DNA from: Myxococcota bacterium
GTDB lineage: Bacteria > Myxococcota_A > UBA9042 > DTJE01
Length of the DNA stretch: 60,142 nt
Reading direction: 5' to 3'
NCBI GenBank assembly: GCA_029975745.1
Contig: JARKOL010000155.1
Location: 1-60,142, forward strand
Shown here: in pieces, positions 5,054 through 15,984 of the stretch
Numbering within the stretch: the first letter of the stretch is position 1
How the letters are laid out: every line of letters starts with the position of its first letter
Notes under the pieces: model-generated
What the model was told of the DNA's origin: nothing
Databases searched by the model: none
The model's input: only the letters and a program-made list of their open reading frames with translations
Position numbers and translations under genes: made by a program

Positions 5054-6951
5054 CGTCGCCCCCTTATCGTCAGAAAGACGGACCGCCCAGGCAGCGGGCG
5101 TTGCAGGTGATCGACCCCGTCCCGCTTGTCGGTCAGGTTCATGGCATCCACGGACAGCGACAGCAGGGACGAGAACGCCCAGTCCAGGCGGGCATCCAGC
5201 CGGAAGCGTGCCTCCTCGGACAGCGACTCGAATCGGTCCAGGAACACGCCGGAGCGCCAGCCGGGCATCGCCGAGATCCCGACGGGTCCCAGGCGGACCG
5301 AGGCGGTTCCCTGGACCTCGTGGGCGGGCCGCTGGGGCATCCGCAGGCCGGTGTCGCCGAACCGGGCATCCAGGAACGTGTAGGCAGCCCGAAGGTCGAA
5401 CCATCGCCACGCCCAGCGTGCCTGGAGTTCCACCCCCCGCACCACGGCACCGCCCGAGTTTTCCGCACGCACCAGGAAGGCCGATCGGGGCAGGAACAGG
5501 ATCAGGTTGCGCACGCGGTTCTCGAAGTAGGTCGCCGTCACCCCCCAGGGCCGGCCATGTCCCAGTTCGACGCCGGCGTCCCAGGTCAGGGCATCCTCGG
5601 GCGCCAGGTTCGGATTCCCCTGGACGAACCCAGCGTCGAAGTGCAGTTCCTCCAGAGTCGGCAAGCGGAATCCCCGAGAGACATTGGCGAACAGCCGCAG
5701 CGGTCCCCAGGGGTCGTACCGGACCCCCAGCGCGGGGATCGCCCGGACCCCGAAGCCCTGATCCCACCCGACCCGCAGGTCCAGCGTCGTCTCGAACCGG
5801 TCCGATGGCGGGCCGAAGCGCCCCCGGATCCGGCCGGACACGGTCGTGCGCGAGGGCGCCCCCGGCCTGGCTCCCAGTCGGCGGGCTTCCCCGAGGTCGT
5901 GCCCGGCGTCCATGCCGGCCCCCAGAGCGACCCAGGGATGCAGCCGGCCCTCGGTGGCCGCATCGACCCCCACTCCGTGCGCGATCAGCGTGGTCGCCGT
6001 CGGCGGCCCCGAAGGCGGCGCCGAGTCCTGGTACGCGAAGCCCAGTCGGCGGTAGAACGCCGACGCCCGGGTCCAGCCACTGTCCCCGAAGAGCCGTGGC
6101 CCTTCCCATGCGACACGAGTCACAACCCGGGTGTCCTGCTGGCGGGCGGTCGTCGAGGGATACTGCTCCAGGCCGGCAATCTGGCGACGCCCCAGGGCCC
6201 CCTCGACCATGCCGTCGATCCGGTGCCCCCCGGACAGTCGTGCCGCGACCCGCCCCATGCCCTGGAATCCCAGGGTCGCACTGTGGTCCCGAACCCGGCG
6301 GATCCCGTTGGTATCGACAAACTCGAAGGCACCGTCCGAGGCCATCAGACCGCCGCCGACCAGCATCCCGACGTCGTGCGGCCCGACCTCCCAGACATGC
6401 GCGTGCGACGCCTTCAGCCGCACTGTCGAGAACGAACCCGCGGTCAGGCTGGCCCGCGTGTCGGGACCGTCCAGCGGGTCGAGGGTCCGGGCCGCCACGA
6501 CGCCCCCCACCGCGTCGGTGCCGTGGGACGCAGAGCGGCCACCGCGGACGACATCCAGCGTGTCCAGGGGCACCAGCGCCAGCGCGGACAGGTCGGCCCC
6601 GCCCAGGAAGGGCGAATTCAACGGCACCCCATCCAGGGTCGTCAGGGTGGCGGACGGATCGGTCCCCCGCACCGCGACGACGGCGGCCTGGCCGGGCCCC
6701 CCCACGGACAGCACCTGGACCGAGGGCAGCCGGGCTACCGCTGCGGCGGGCCCGTCGGGCGCCTCCAGGACGGCCGGCTCGGAGACGCGATCGCCGCGGA
6801 CCGACCGGGGAGCGGTCCGATCCGGGGTCGGGTCCGGGTCACCCACGACCTCGATCGACGGCACGACAACCGCCTCCTGGGCCCGGGCGGACGCCCCCGG
6901 GGCCGACAGCGCGGCGATCAGGAACAGCCTGGCAGCCCGTTGCCGCATCAT
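5050..6951 (-). CDS. btuB: TonB-dependent outer-membrane receptor, BtuB-like (cobalamin/corrinoid uptake inferred from the riboswitch)
   Basis: 633 aa with a signal peptide ending ASARAQE. Plug-domain blocks are VAVRGTDPSATLTTLDGVPLNSP and LDVVRGGRSASHGTDAVGGVV. It falls in the roughly 600-aa BtuB size class. ATGA overlaps with both neighbours, and a cobalamin riboswitch lies upstream of the operon. Confidence 0.8.
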   Translation of the reverse strand: MMRQRAARLFLIAALSAPGASARAQEAVVVPSIEVVGDPDPTPDRTAPRSVRGDRVSEPAVLEAPDGPAAAVARLPSVQVLSVGGPGQAAVVAVRGTDPSATLTTLDGVPLNSPFLGGADLSALALVPLDTLDVVRGGRSASHGTDAVGGVVAARTLDPLDGPDTRASLTAGSFSTVRLKASHAHVWEVGPHDVGMLVGGGLMASDGAFEFVDTNGIRRVRDHSATLGFQGMGRVAARLSGGHRIDGMVEGALGRRQIAGLEQYPSTTARQQDTRVVTRVAWEGPRLFGDSGWTRASAFYRRLGFAYQDSAPPSGPPTATTLIAHGVGVDAATEGRLHPWVALGAGMDAGHDLGEARRLGARPGAPSRTTVSGRIRGRFGPPSDRFETTLDLRVGWDQGFGVRAIPALGVRYDPWGPLRLFANVSRGFRLPTLEELHFDAGFVQGNPNLAPEDALTWDAGVELGHGRPWGVTATYFENRVRNLILFLPRSAFLVRAENSGGAVVRGVELQARWAWRWFDLRAAYTFLDARFGDTGLRMPQRPAHEVQGTASVRLGPVGISAMPGWRSGVFLDRFESLSEEARFRLDARLDWAFSSLLSLSVDAMNLTDKRDGVDHLQRPLPGRSVFLTIRGRR

Positions 6952-7715
6952 TCCTGCACGTACCGGGCGATGACCCCGTCGATGTCGGCTCCGTTCGACG
7001 CGGGATCTCGCACGTAGGGCGCCCCGGTGTCCGGATTGGTCCGCGACGGGGCCGTCACCAGCATCAGGAAGCGGAAGCCGTCTTCCCGGATGGCCCGCGC
7101 GTCGGGATCGTCCAGGGGCAGGTCGTCAAGGTCGAACGGGTCGCCCCCGGCCGCGGCGTGATCGAACGGATCGACCGGATTCGATTCGACGTGGAACCGG
7201 ACCGGGTACCGGCCTGCGAACCCCGGCCACAACTCGGGATCCGCCACGTACGTCTCCTCGTCCTGGGCGATGTAGTCGTGGGGAAACGGCACCCAGTTGG
7301 TGCCATCCCGGGACAGGTACACGATCGCCAGGTCCATGAAGACGCGGCCTCCGCCGATCTCGAATGCGTTCTCGAACACGACGAAGTCGATCCCGTCGCC
7401 GTTTCGTACCCAGGCGCCCCCCCAGGACAGGACCAGGGCGTTGTCGATGCCCTCGGCGTATCCCAGGCTGAACACGTCCGTGCCGCCGCCGTGGGTGCCG
7501 CCGCCCCGCACGCCGTTGACCGCCCGCAGCGAATCCCCGTGCCCCTCGCCGGTGTGCCCGGGGGCATCGACCACGGTGTCCGCGACAACCCCCGGAGGCG
7601 TCCATCCGTCCGGCCAGCCCCCGGCGGCATCCATCACGTCCCCGACGGGGTCGGACACGGAGCCGCATGCGACGGCCAGCAGCCACGCGCCCCCCAGGGC
7701 GACCCAGGTTCGCAT
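6948..7715 (-). CDS. Lipoprotein of unknown function (beta-sandwich-like), second gene of the btuB-like operon
   Basis: Start MRTWVALGGAWLLAVACGS (lipobox AVAC) at 7715. The stop overlaps the btuB start (ATGA). Coding-like composition; conserved-looking block GIDFVVFENAFEIGGGRVFMDLAIVYLSRDGTNWVPFP. The upstream 17 codons in the ORF track were not used. Confidence 0.7.
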   Translation of the reverse strand: MRTWVALGGAWLLAVACGSVSDPVGDVMDAAGGWPDGWTPPGVVADTVVDAPGHTGEGHGDSLRAVNGVRGGGTHGGGTDVFSLGYAEGIDNALVLSWGGAWVRNGDGIDFVVFENAFEIGGGRVFMDLAIVYLSRDGTNWVPFPHDYIAQDEETYVADPELWPGFAGRYPVRFHVESNPVDPFDHAAAGGDPFDLDDLPLDDPDARAIREDGFRFLMLVTAPSRTNPDTGAPYVRDPASNGADIDGVIARYVQE

Positions 7716-12761: not shown

Positions 12762-13679
12762 CTATCGCGACCGCCGGAACGCCCGAAGCCCGATCACCCC
12801 GAATCGCCGGACATAGCCGGGATAGACGCCGGGACAGGACGCGCGCATGGCGCAGTCGTCGCAGGCCGCGGGGTACTCGCGATCCCCGTGATCGGTAGGG
12901 AACAGGCCGTCCTCGAACCCCTCGGACATGTACAGGATGTTGTGGGTTCGCAGGTTCGCCACCGCGTCCAGGGCCGACGGGATCTGGCACAACGGAAAGC
13001 CCTCGACCACGGCCTCCAGGCCGTCCGAACCGTGCCGCGACCGCGCCGCCGACACCGCGTCGCACGCCGCCCGGCCGGCCTGCTCCGGAGGCACCAGCAA
13101 CTGCGCCGCGTACGCATCGAACAGCCCCCGGGGCTCGGCCAGACACAGTTTGTGGGTCAGCGGTGCGAACGGCGCCAGCAGGTCCCCGATGGCGACCAGC
13201 TCGTCCACGTTCGGCCGGGTAATGACCGTGTTGACGTGCAGTTCGACCCCCTTCCCGGACAGCCCGACGAGGGCCGCCAGCACCTCGTCGAACGATGCGC
13301 ACTGGACCAGGTGGTCATGCGTCGCGGCCGACGCGCCGTGCAGGGAGGTGTGTACGTAGGCCAGTCCCAGGTCCAGCAGCGCCTGGCGATACGCGGGGTG
13401 GGCCAGGCGACGCCCGTTCGTGATCAATCCCCAGCGCATGCCCAGGGCCGTCGCGGCCCGCGCCAGCACCGGCAGATCGGCCCGCAGCGTCGGCTCGCCG
13501 CCCGAAAACAGGATCATCCCGACGCCCCGCGCCCGCGCCGCCGCCATCTTCCGGGCGATGTCCGCACGGGGAGCGTCCGGCACCTGGTCCCGCCAGGCCT
13601 CGACACGGCAGAATCGACAACGGGAATTGCACTGGTAGGTCAACTTCAGGACGGCGCGCAGCGGCGGTTCGCCAGGCAT
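12762..13679 (-). CDS. Radical SAM protein (HxsC-like partner enzyme, tentative)
   Basis: Start MPGEPPLRAVLKLTYQCNSRCRFC at 13679, 34 nt downstream of the preceding gene. It has CX3CX2C (CNSRCRFC), SGGEPTL and a C-terminal Cys cluster CDDCAMRASCPG. The longer 348-aa version in the ORF track overlaps the upstream gene and was not used. Confidence 0.75.
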   Translation of the reverse strand: MPGEPPLRAVLKLTYQCNSRCRFCRVEAWRDQVPDAPRADIARKMAAARARGVGMILFSGGEPTLRADLPVLARAATALGMRWGLITNGRRLAHPAYRQALLDLGLAYVHTSLHGASAATHDHLVQCASFDEVLAALVGLSGKGVELHVNTVITRPNVDELVAIGDLLAPFAPLTHKLCLAEPRGLFDAYAAQLLVPPEQAGRAACDAVSAARSRHGSDGLEAVVEGFPLCQIPSALDAVANLRTHNILYMSEGFEDGLFPTDHGDREYPAACDDCAMRASCPGVYPGYVRRFGVIGLRAFRRSR

Positions 13680-13713
13680 GCGTCCCCCCACGGGTGGGCC
13701 GGGCGGCACCCGG

Positions 13714-15222
13714 TCAGAACCCCTGCTGCATGCGGCGGCCGTCGTGCATGTACTCGGGACGGTCCTTGACCTCGACCCAGCGGCGGAAGATGTCCTTGAC
13801 CTGCTCATCCTCCCCCATCAGCCGCGCGAACAGTCGATCCTGGACGCCCATGTAGATCACGCAGCGCTGGTTCGTCGCGTTCTGGGGGAAGATGTTGCCT
13901 TGCTCGGTGTAGTTGTACACCGGACAGGTCCCGCAGTAGGGCTTGTAGGCGCACGTCGCGCACCCGGGAATCGAGTCCAGCGTCGAGGCCATCGCGATCG
14001 ACTTGACGGTGTCGTGGGTCACGACGTCCCGCAGGGTCATCGTGTTGACCGTCCCGATCTTGAACACCTCGTCGCCCATCTGGTACACCATGCGGCCCTC
14101 GTCGCAGGTGAAGATGGACCCGTCGTAGTTGTACGCGATCTGGCCGATCCCGGCGCCGCACGGCGAGCGGATGTCCAGGTAGTTCGGATCGTCCGGGGTC
14201 AGGATCTTGGTCAGGAAGATCGCCGCCAGGCGCTCGAGGATCTCGACGCCCTGACGATTGAGTTCCAGGATGTAGTTCAGGGCCTCGTCGTAGAACTTCA
14301 GGAAGTCGTCGCCCATGTAGCCGACCATGCCTTCCGTGTTCTTGGCGAACCCGAACGGGTTCAGCGGACGCAGGAAGACGGCGCGGCACCCCTGCTTCAC
14401 GTACTCGTCCACCAGGTCCTTCGCCCGCCCCAGGTGCTCGCGGGTGATCGTCGCCAGCGCCTCGACGTGGTACAGCCTGGGGTCCAGCCCGGCATCGACG
14501 TAGGCCTGGTTGATCCGGGCCATCCACTCGACCGTCTTGTCGTACGCGGACGACTTCGCCAGGTAGCGATTCTTGTCGTGCAGGTCCTTCGGGCCGTCCA
14601 GGGATGTCGAGATCTGGACCCGGTGTTCGATCAGGTACGCCAGCTTCTCGTCATCCATCAGCGAAAGGTTCGACACCAGGCTGAACATCACGCGCTTGCC
14701 GCGCTGCTTCGCCAGGGTCGAGCCGTACTCGACCACGTGCTTGACGGTGTCCCAGTTCGCCAGAGGCTCGCCGCCCTGGAACTCGATCGTGAGGGTGTCC
14801 GACGGGGACCGCATCGCCATCTCGACGACCTTCTCGGCCGTCGGGATCGACATGTCGGTCTCGGTCTCCTTCATGTTGGCCCGGCTGGCGTGGCAGTACT
14901 TGCAGACCTCGTTGCACCGCAGCGTCACGACCATGATGTGCAGGACCGGCCCACGGTGCAGGAACGCCACCTTCCGATCGTAGTCCGCCGCCACGTCGTC
15001 CAGATTCGTGTCGGAAACCAGGAACCCCTTGGCCGCCAGTTCGTCGAACATCGCCGTCCCGGGCTTGACGCGCCCGGTCACCAGCGTCTGCAACTGGTCC
15101 TCGTCCAGGAATGCGTAGGCGCCATGGTCGTTGGTGACGACGTAGCGCGGTCCCACCTTGCGAAAGCGCGGCAGGTTCAGCATCGGCTTGGCGGCCTTGA
15201 CGGCCGGCTTCTTCGCAGTCAT
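13714..15222 (-). CDS. Radical SAM/SPASM-domain maturase (HxsB-like, tentative)
   Basis: 502 aa with CNEVCKYC (CX3CX2C) and FQGGEPL. SPASM-type Cys clusters are SPCGAGIGQIAYNYDGSIFTCDEG and GCATCAYKPYCGTCPVYNY. An N-terminal extension of about 95 aa (YVVTNDHGAYAFLDEDQLQTLV...ELAAKGFL) resembles the paired Hxs radical SAM proteins as I remember them. The ATG overlaps the upstream stop (ATGA). Confidence 0.8.
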   Translation of the reverse strand: MTAKKPAVKAAKPMLNLPRFRKVGPRYVVTNDHGAYAFLDEDQLQTLVTGRVKPGTAMFDELAAKGFLVSDTNLDDVAADYDRKVAFLHRGPVLHIMVVTLRCNEVCKYCHASRANMKETETDMSIPTAEKVVEMAMRSPSDTLTIEFQGGEPLANWDTVKHVVEYGSTLAKQRGKRVMFSLVSNLSLMDDEKLAYLIEHRVQISTSLDGPKDLHDKNRYLAKSSAYDKTVEWMARINQAYVDAGLDPRLYHVEALATITREHLGRAKDLVDEYVKQGCRAVFLRPLNPFGFAKNTEGMVGYMGDDFLKFYDEALNYILELNRQGVEILERLAAIFLTKILTPDDPNYLDIRSPCGAGIGQIAYNYDGSIFTCDEGRMVYQMGDEVFKIGTVNTMTLRDVVTHDTVKSIAMASTLDSIPGCATCAYKPYCGTCPVYNYTEQGNIFPQNATNQRCVIYMGVQDRLFARLMGEDEQVKDIFRRWVEVKDRPEYMHDGRRMQQGF

Positions 15223-15434
15223 TGCTCGCCTCGCAGCGCGATGGCCGTACCCAGCACGAAGTTGCGGAACTCGCCGGCCAGTTCGGCGGCGTCCTCGGCA
15301 ACCTGCGGCCGGAGCTCGACCACGGCATAGTCCCCCTGAACGGACACCCGGATCTCGGCAACGTCCGCGAACGCCTCGGCCGCCGCCTGGACCGCCATCT
15401 TCGGATAGATCTTCTTGTGGAACCTAAGGGTCAT
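15219..15434 (-). CDS. Small HxsD-like protein (71 aa), short paralog
   Basis: ATG at 15434 with a GAGGTG SD 5 nt upstream; the stop overlaps the radical SAM start. MTLRFHKKIYPKMAVQAAAEAFADV...ELAGEFRNFVLGTAIALR aligns with the upstream 174-aa protein. The 147-aa version in the ORF track overlaps the upstream gene. Confidence 0.65.
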   Translation of the reverse strand: MTLRFHKKIYPKMAVQAAAEAFADVAEIRVSVQGDYAVVELRPQVAEDAAELAGEFRNFVLGTAIALRGEQ

Positions 15435-15459
15435 CGCTGCACCTCGTCGGGCCGCGGCC

Positions 15460-15984
15460 TCACTGGGCCTTGCCGCCCTTGGTGGGCTCGCCGTCCTTCT
15501 TCCCGTACTTGTCCTCCCAGGGCACCGCGATGCCCAGCGGGTCGTCCAGGAAGTCCAGACTGTCCTCCTCTTCGGCCAGCAGCTTCGCGACCTCGGGCGG
15601 CAGGTCCGGCAATGCCGGAACCGCGGGGGCCGGCGCGCCTTCGACGGGGATCGCATCGGCAATCGCGCGTCCGACGATCATGGTGCGGACCTTTTCGGTC
15701 TGCTTCGCCAGCTTGACGCGCAGCGCCTGATTGACCAGTTCGTTCTTGAACTCGCCCACCAGTTCGTCCAGCGAGAACCGCGTCCCGGGACGGGCCTCGA
15801 TCTCGACCTTGATGCGATCGGCGTCCTGGACGTCCAGGTGCAGGTACGCGCGATCCAGGAAACCGAACGCCGTGCCGAACAGCACGTCCGCCGGGTAGAG
15901 CGTCTTGTGAACGATCACCGTGCCGACGGACCCCCGGGTCTGCGTCGCGACGGGCGACGCACCTTGCGCCTTTTTGGCGGGCAT
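15460..15984 (-). CDS. HxsD-like protein with a Pro/acidic/Lys-rich C-terminal tail of about 70 aa (174 aa)
   Basis: ATG at 15984 with a GGAGG SD 9 nt upstream. The core IVHKTLYPADVLFGTAFGFLD...LVGEFKNELVNQALRVKLAKQTEKVRTMIVGRAIA recalls the HxsD (LLNDYxLRE-type) family. The tail is PVEGAPAPAVPALPDLPPEVAKLLAEEEDSLDFLDDPLGIAVPWEDKYGKKDGEPTKGGKAQ. Confidence 0.65.
   Translation of the reverse strand: MPAKKAQGASPVATQTRGSVGTVIVHKTLYPADVLFGTAFGFLDRAYLHLDVQDADRIKVEIEARPGTRFSLDELVGEFKNELVNQALRVKLAKQTEKVRTMIVGRAIADAIPVEGAPAPAVPALPDLPPEVAKLLAEEEDSLDFLDDPLGIAVPWEDKYGKKDGEPTKGGKAQ

Follow-up and report, generated by a model that had tools for sequence, protein, structure and literature searches.

What are two small tandem genes doing beside a pair of radical S-adenosylmethionine (radical-SAM) enzymes in a Myxococcota bacterium, and what is the long C-terminal tail that one of their products carries? 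The genes lie in a 60,142-nucleotide stretch of DNA (GenBank assembly GCA_029975745.1, contig JARKOL010000155.1), which was analyzed as a whole and is here called the window. They belong to a cassette of four co-oriented minus-strand genes, which encode a 174-aa HxsD protein, a 71-aa HxsD-like protein, HxsB, and an HxsC-like radical-SAM protein (Table 1). An earlier note on this DNA had taken the tail of the longer protein for a possible radical-SAM substrate fused to its own leader. We conclude, with moderate confidence, that the cassette is the core of a type-4 His-Xaa-Ser (Hxs) radical-SAM maturation system, in which the small genes encode HxsD-type helpers and the tail carries a tethering motif. 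HxsD, HxsD-like, and HxsB are catalogued families; what is new is the tail motif on the long HxsD of the type-4 system, of which we found no description in the searchable literature.

Two small proteins of the HxsD family

The earlier note had read two tandem small open reading frames (ORFs) on the minus strand, and both were confirmed, with ribosome-binding-like sequences ahead of their ATG codons. The 174-aa ORF has GGAGG ~9 nt ahead of its ATG, and its N-terminus (MPAKK) is common to its homologs, whereas the 71-aa ORF is preceded by GAGG and has a stop codon that overlaps the HxsB start (ATGA). Each protein passes a curated family model (Table 1). The 71-aa protein also matches the HxsD model TIGR03976 (E-value = 3.4e-4), and no model in our local copy of Pfam matched either small protein. 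Seventy-eight homologs, from Myxococcota, Polyangia, and bacteria of the Candidate Phyla Radiation (CPR), cover 95–100 per cent of the length of the 174-aa protein.

Pairwise similarity between the two proteins is marginal (BLASTP; 33 per cent identity over 30 aa, E-value = 9e-4). In a profile–profile comparison (hhalign), however, the two families align over 70 columns with a probability of 96.7 per cent (E-value = 4e-10), and residues 21–88 of the long protein pair with residues 1–65 of the short one, in agreement with a by-eye alignment of the earlier note that had set the 71-aa protein against residues ~24–95. AlphaFold2 predicts a beta-alpha-beta-beta-alpha fold for the short protein, with a predicted local distance difference test score (pLDDT) of 96, and the same core for the long protein, to which an N-terminal strand and one more helix are added. 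Because of this profile match and the shared predicted core, we regard the 174-aa and 71-aa proteins as paralogs.

The positions that the earlier note had listed as shared are the columns that define the HxsD family (LYP, A-x-x-F-x-D, and GEFxN...R). In an alignment of 31 diverse homologs of the 174-aa protein, which is also the source of the other invariant columns given below, Y30, E82, and R89 are invariant. According to a motif alignment made here, Y30 (of LYP) and R89 correspond to Y23 and R65 of Escherichia coli HxsD, both of which have been mutated (Li et al., Nat Commun 2026, PMC13128918). No solved structures related by sequence to the small proteins were found. Foldseek returned only weak matches (E-value of 3e-3 or worse, template modeling score of ~0.5), to Rpb11/RpoL-type dimerization subunits and to YbjN/secretion-chaperone-like folds, and the likeness of the predicted models to dimerization subunits is at most a hint.

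A conserved motif in the tail of the long HxsD

Past the shared core, the long protein has, as the earlier note had read, an extra helix (residues 97–111) and then a low-complexity tail with Pro/Ala, acidic, and VPWEDKYGKK stretches. The tail (residues 112–174) is predicted to be flexible (pLDDT 39–68), and the model gives no sign that it docks in cis. Conservation of the tail in orthologous cassettes, which had been set beforehand as a test, was found: of the 13 invariant columns of the protein, 9 fall within D144–E157 (D144, D148, P149, G151, I152, A153, P155, W156, and E157). Between distant pairs of homologs, this 14-residue motif is 64–100 per cent identical, compared to 29–61 per cent for the domain, and it is the most conserved part of the long HxsD from Myxococcota to CPR bacteria.

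A profile of the tail only, searched against 1.84 billion representative sequences (E-value ≤ 1e-3), retrieved 257 clusters. Among the 150 clusters listed, nearly all proteins of at least 100 aa carry the motif toward their C-terminus, with HxsD sequence ahead of it. The 78 full-length homologs and the tail-profile matches together make up 222 proteins with 236 instances of the motif, the consensus of which is [FY]LDDP[LE]GIA[VI]PWEEK[YF]GK. Two or three copies, with acidic spacers between them, are present in 15 of these proteins. The motif is not located at the extreme C-terminus, and 5–83 residues follow its Trp.

Genomes that are missed by this narrow profile still encode a tail, but a diverged one (e.g. 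DDPLEISVPWEE or DDPLKITVPWD), in which the Lys and Tyr are lost and DDPLxIxVPW is retained. Because only this core is retained, the universal part of the motif, as judged from the sequences, is DDPLxIxVPW[ED], with Lys-Tyr-Gly-Lys as an optional addition. Of the Trp, Tyr, and Lys residues that the earlier note had offered as crosslink targets, the Trp is thus invariant, but the other two are not. The conserved Leu, Ile, and Val alternate with variable positions (mostly Gly or Ala; E/S, E/E, or K/T in diverged tails), as one would expect in a strand that is bound through one of its faces. The source genome has a single copy of the motif, which was not found in canonical Hxs loci or in the other loci of the system in this genome.

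We conclude that the motif is a real and strongly selected feature of the type-4 variant. The notion that the tail is functionless low-complexity filler and that the two small proteins resemble each other by chance is scarcely credible: the marginal BLASTP match would agree with it, but the profile–profile comparison, the curated models passed by both proteins, the invariance of nine motif columns across phyla, and the 257 clusters retrieved with the tail profile all contradict it.

Two short matches that were candidates for stand-alone motif peptides turned out to be assembly or annotation artifacts when checked in their DNA context, as P0083 sits behind an in-frame TAG within a three-repeat tail and P0102 adjoins a run of N. 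Some of the other short tail-profile matches, where their sequence was read, start with the HxsD helix or linker. In one metagenomic HxsD with a three-repeat tail (L052, 279–1001, plus strand), an in-frame TAG follows the first repeat, and the last two repeats are called as a 76-aa protein; a sequencing error, a recent nonsense mutation, and read-through are all possible explanations of this TAG.

Co-occurrence of the tail with HxsA4 and HxsB

The earlier note had seen no His-Xaa-Ser precursor. The same genome does encode one, which was recovered by scanning the genome bin (87 per cent complete, 408 contigs) in six frames. It is a 102-aa ORF on contig C27 (9365–9673, plus strand) that ends in HCS...(HGS)n...W and passes the HxsA4 model NF038313 (75.2 bits; cut-off 55).

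In an even sample of 401 genomes across the phylum, the tail profile matches in 101 genomes, HxsD-like is found in 137, and HxsA4 in 167 (125 over the cut-off). All 101 tail-bearing genomes also have HxsD-like, with the two genes adjoining, and 97 of them have HxsA4; HxsA4 likewise accompanies HxsD-like in 131 of 137 genomes. A family search places an HxsD-like gene in the diverged-tail cassettes as well. Because the system is near-universal in the window's class (families at 16/18, 29/29, and 6/6), its distribution there suggests a core function that is passed on vertically and not a mobile defense island.

HxsA4 lies on a separate contig from the cassette in every genome compared from the window's family and from a large sister family, and ~2 kb downstream of the cassette in several other families. 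In two metagenomic relatives, one CPR genome, and a distant locus of low guanine-plus-cytosine content (low-GC), a His-x-Ser gene directly follows HxsB. The gene order HxsD-tail, HxsD-like, HxsB, HxS-repeat recurs in Myxococcota, CPR bacteria, and the low-GC lineage. In a metagenome-assembled genome (MAG) of Colwellbacteria, a very long His-[SGA]-Ser repeat ORF after HxsB (L009, ~10600, plus strand) lies under a spurious public gene call of 178 aa on the opposite strand.

When one genome per species was scanned for the exact peptide GIAVPWE[ED], 204 stretches were found, of which 178 encode HxsD relatives. The best 80 loci with named records, to which the locus counts refer, are in MAGs, mostly labeled as Myxococcota (or Deltaproteobacteria) or as CPR bacteria (e.g. 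Saccharibacteria, Falkowbacteria, Colwellbacteria, and Nealsonbacteria). HxsB is encoded within 3 kb at 76 of these 80 loci, HxsD-like at 73, and a His-x-Ser repeat ORF at 27. The CX3CX2C motif is present in 74 of the 76 HxsB proteins; the two without it are L124, which is confirmed dead, and L136, which may be. In the window, HxsB is located one gene downstream of the tailed HxsD, and the order is the same in the five relatives whose cassettes were read gene by gene.

The HxsA4 gene on C27 (locus L013) has on one side a DDE transposase ORF (5838–7022, minus strand) and on the other the cytochrome c biogenesis genes CcmF, CcmA, and CcmC; the nearby insertion sequence suggests that HxsA4 was relocated in the source genome. 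HxsA4 leaders (L013, L010, L056, and L026–L035) have the common pattern LP.F......[GDA][FM]LS..E, which recalls the prepilin or class III signal (cut after Gly, with Phe at +1 and Glu at +5). On the basis of this pattern and of an A24-like membrane protein described below, we speculate that HxsA4 may undergo pilin-like N-terminal processing. The possibility that the tail mimics the HxsA4 leader (both contain DFL....G) was rejected, as the hhalign score of 4.6 for 180 instances of the tail and 12 leaders falls within the 3.2–8.8 of column-shuffled controls.

The cassette and dispersed radical-SAM genes

Table 1. Features of the cassette in the window, with curated cut-offs given in bits.
Feature	Position	Strand	Evidence
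HxsD, long paralog, 174 aa	15460..15984	-	TIGR03976, 60.9 bits (cut-off 50), residues 26-111
HxsD folded domain, residues 10-111, b-b-a-b-b-a-a (predicted)	15652..15957	-	AlphaFold2 pLDDT >90
Flexible Pro/Ala and acidic linker, residues 112-143	15556..15651	-	pLDDT 53-68; length and sequence vary among homologs
Conserved tail motif DFLDDPLGIAVPWEDKYGKK, residues 144-163	15496..15555	-	Nine invariant columns in 31 homologs
Unconserved Lys/Gly/Glu-rich C-terminal end, residues 164-174	15463..15495	-	Variable length and sequence; pLDDT <50
HxsD-like, short paralog, 71 aa	15219..15434	-	NF038315, 74.9 bits (cut-off 41)
HxsB radical-SAM/SPASM maturase, 502 aa	13714..15222	-	TIGR03978, 539 bits (cut-off 370); CX3CX2C and SPASM cysteines present
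HxsC/HxsC4-like radical-SAM protein, 348-aa ORF	12762..13808	-	PF04055, 71 bits; HxsC4 (NF038332) 87.8 bits (cut-off 500) and HxsC (TIGR03977) 86 bits (cut-off 267.9), both far under cut-offs

HxsB has an RRE-like region at its N-terminus (residues 1–95), where RRE stands for the recognition element of ribosomally synthesized and post-translationally modified peptides (RiPPs). As listed, the 348-aa HxsC-like ORF shares 95 nt (13714–13808) with the end of HxsB; its real start is probably an ATG near 13679, which would remove the overlap. The cassette is flanked by genes for an HlyIII-family membrane protein, a dicarboxylate symporter, and a secreted esterase, and its surroundings are neither a defense island nor a mobile element. 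PADLOC, the 2023 release of which is without a model for the canonical HXS system, returned only generic radical-SAM similarity at the locus.

No canonical HxsC above the cut-off was found in the cassette, and the canonical four-gene D-B-C-A set was not found in the source genome, where the best match to the HxsA model TIGR03979 scores 22 bits (cut-off 121.65). No HxsC4 above the cut-off was found in the source genome either, the best match being 356 bits on contig C207.

HxsC4-like radical-SAM genes are nonetheless numerous. The distant low-GC locus (L055/L056) encodes five such enzymes together with a FlaK/A24-like polytopic membrane protein. In the source genome, four tandem HxsC4-like genes on contig C91 (locus L050, 4234–9930, plus strand) are followed by a homolog of that membrane protein (E-value = 8e-17), and further paralogs are located on C207 (116–1276) and C310 (648–1649). 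The paralogs on these three contigs have the Cys-rich C-terminus of the window's HxsC-like protein, and the C91 genes end in ...FG.DE..P. HxsC4-like enzymes are stand-alone, with little or no sequence ahead of the radical-SAM core. With HxsA4 and these HxsC4-like genes on other contigs, this genome holds its system in no fewer than three separate loci. Reading of the five cassettes revealed no protease gene, save for the A24-like membrane peptidase that is encoded at the low-GC locus and on C91, and the match of this protein to A24-type peptidases is weak (27.5 bits; cut-off 330).

Comparison with known systems

Experimental work on Hxs is confined to a single paper, on the canonical system of Pseudomonadota (hxsD-hxsB-hxsC-hxsA), which is antiphage and blocks phage DNA entry (PMC13128918). 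In that system, HxsD is a helper in complex with HxsC, mutation of its conserved Tyr or of its Asp/Arg motif impairs HxsA processing, and E. coli HxsA is N-terminally processed and exported (PMC13128918). The window's system is similar in that its HxsD and HxsB orthologs score above curated cut-offs, its HxsD has retained the key residues (the Tyr of LYW/LYP and the Arg of LLNDYxLRE), and a small helper and radical-SAM enzymes would act on a His-x-Ser repeat protein. It differs in having no canonical HxsC and no TIGR03979-type HxsA, a small and unlinked putative substrate of the HxsA4 type, two HxsD paralogs instead of one, and many extra HxsC4-like radical-SAM paralogs. Canonical HxsD also ends right after its last helix, without a tail (96 aa on an Aeromonas plasmid and 110 aa on a Nostoc plasmid). 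Moreover, the type-4 system is near-universal and apparently vertical in the window's class, and it does not lie on mobile elements or in a defense island.

The catalogue entry that matches is type 4 Hxs of NCBIfam (HxsA4, NF038313; HxsD-like, NF038315; HxsC4, NF038332). HxsA4 and HxsD-like of the source genome are above the respective cut-offs, but none of its proteins reaches that of HxsC4. Our literature search found no paper on HxsA4, HxsD-like, or the type-4 families, which are known as annotation models.

Better-studied proteins outside the Hxs family provide analogies for both the tail and the domain. The tail of SspB tethers substrate to ClpX, and the C-terminal tail of SSB recruits partners. 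Long HxsD resembles these by analogy rather than by homology: a folded domain is followed by a variable acidic linker and a short, conserved, hydrophobic motif with Pro and an aromatic residue, and the motif is more conserved than the domain. In contrast to them, it has its motif away from the very C-terminus, and no sequence or fold relationship exists. PqqD/MftB-type partners, which contain an RRE, are RiPP peptide chaperones, and as in their case a small protein here would assist a radical-SAM/SPASM maturase; the predicted HxsD fold, however, differs from the winged helix of an RRE. If the tail were a core peptide, the HxsD domain would be a leader of domain size, as found in the NHLP and Nif11 classes of precursors. 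Unlike in RiPP precursors, no cleavage motif, Gly-Gly or other, was found ahead of the tail motif.

Docking handle or substrate

In the explanation that we favor, the substrate would be the small HxsA4, which consists of a leader followed by HCS(HGS)n...W and would have moved to another contig in the source genome. The two small proteins would be accessory subunits rather than precursors, derived from a duplicated HxsD, a helper which in the canonical system binds its radical-SAM partner and assists in presenting HxsA. The long and short paralogs probably form an adaptor together and may do so as a heterodimer. The tail motif would be a tether, that is, a docking handle on a flexible acidic linker that binds a conserved partner, with HxsB as the likeliest partner and the stand-alone HxsC4-like radical-SAM enzymes as alternatives. 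Such a tether could hold the enzyme or enzymes and the bound precursor together, as the SspB and SSB tails do for their partners. We consider the tail more likely to be a binding handle than a substrate because the system has its own precursor, the linker is variable, the conserved Leu, Ile, and Val alternate with variable positions, the motif is always on HxsD, and its Lys and Tyr are dispensable.

An additional argument comes from a clade of radical-dead HxsB proteins encoded beside tailed HxsD and HxsD-like. They occur in three genomes of a single myxobacterial genus, at a metagenomic locus, and in a MAG (the loci include L058 [G164:C39], L059 [G099:C8], L061, and L124). Their genes have been kept as open frames, although the CX3CX2C loop is gone through a deletion of 11–12 residues and the SPASM cysteines are gone as well. 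Two of the dead HxsB proteins are only 34.6 per cent identical to each other, whereas the adjoining tail motifs are identical in 14/14 positions. Therefore, the motif is independent of the radical chemistry of the neighboring HxsB.

Several observations weigh against the docking explanation. A domain peculiar to type-4 HxsB, which could account for a new docking site, was looked for and not found. The extreme conservation of the motif and its occurrence in two or three tandem copies would suit a conserved core peptide as well; repeated motifs are typical targets of radical-SAM/SPASM enzymes, and the invariant Trp is a plausible radical target. Genomes of the genus with dead HxsB also hold a live, intact HxsB elsewhere, which weakens the argument drawn from the dead enzymes, and radical-SAM enzymes other than the adjoining HxsB could modify the tail. 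In addition, the Rpb11-like fold match behind the dimerization idea is weak.

The tail might instead be a substrate in cis, with the HxsD domain as a built-in leader or chaperone, a radical-SAM enzyme modifying the motif (likeliest at the Trp or its neighbor), and HxsA4 as a second substrate; the product would be either a protein-borne crosslink or cofactor or a released peptide. The leader-core-like architecture from which the earlier note had argued is there, in the form of a folded scaffold with a flexible C-terminal peptide, but the step from this architecture to a radical-SAM substrate is weakened by HxsA4 and by the dead HxsB. We regard modification in cis as possible, if on the unlikely side. 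It would account for a motif that is conserved across phyla more strongly than any other part of the protein, that is duplicated or triplicated in some lineages as in multi-core precursors, and that is encoded beside HxsB, a SPASM-type peptide maturase; it would also give work to the radical-SAM enzymes of the system, which seem far too many for a single substrate, and it has precedents in the domain-sized leaders mentioned above. Yet a dedicated precursor, HxsA4, is encoded in nearly all tail-bearing genomes, so the tail is not the sole or principal candidate. Diverged tails have lost the Lys and Tyr, no cleavage motif lies ahead of the tail motif, the five cassettes read encode no protease save for the A24-like protein, and no stand-alone peptide version was found among the short matches examined. 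The motif is also unchanged beside an HxsB without its iron–sulfur site, and it lies off the extreme C-terminus, with trailing residues that are free to vary. Doubtful, in our view, is the more specific proposal that the tail is a protein-borne core peptide, that the invariant Trp region of DDPLGIAVPWEE is modified by a radical-SAM enzyme of the system, and that type-4 Hxs thus matures two substrates. If it were true, HxsD would be a precursor with its own chaperone domain as leader, or it would carry a protein-derived cofactor or crosslink.

Decidedly unlikely, we think, is some other non-substrate role, in which the tail would target the complex to the membrane or to export or processing machinery (e.g. 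the A24-type peptidase-like protein) or would be an autoinhibitory or regulatory arm that folds onto the HxsD/HxsD-like pair. Targeting is consistent with the hydrophobic, signal-like segment of the source genome's HxsA4, with the FlaK/A24-like membrane protein of the distant locus and its homolog after the four HxsC4-like genes on C91, and with the N-terminal processing and export of E. coli HxsA (PMC13128918). However, many Myxococcota have an HxsA4 without the hydrophobic segment and keep the tail nonetheless, and the peptidase match is weak; as regards an autoinhibitory arm, no docking of the tail in cis is apparent in the AlphaFold2 model.

Significance

Whichever role the tail has, the type-4 relatives of the antiphage HXS system are widespread in Myxococcota and CPR bacteria, apparently vertically inherited, and equipped with many radical-SAM enzymes, and they have so far been represented by annotation models only. 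As a short, nearly invariant peptide that can be synthesized, the tail gives a direct experimental handle on either the assembly of a maturation machine or a second substrate.

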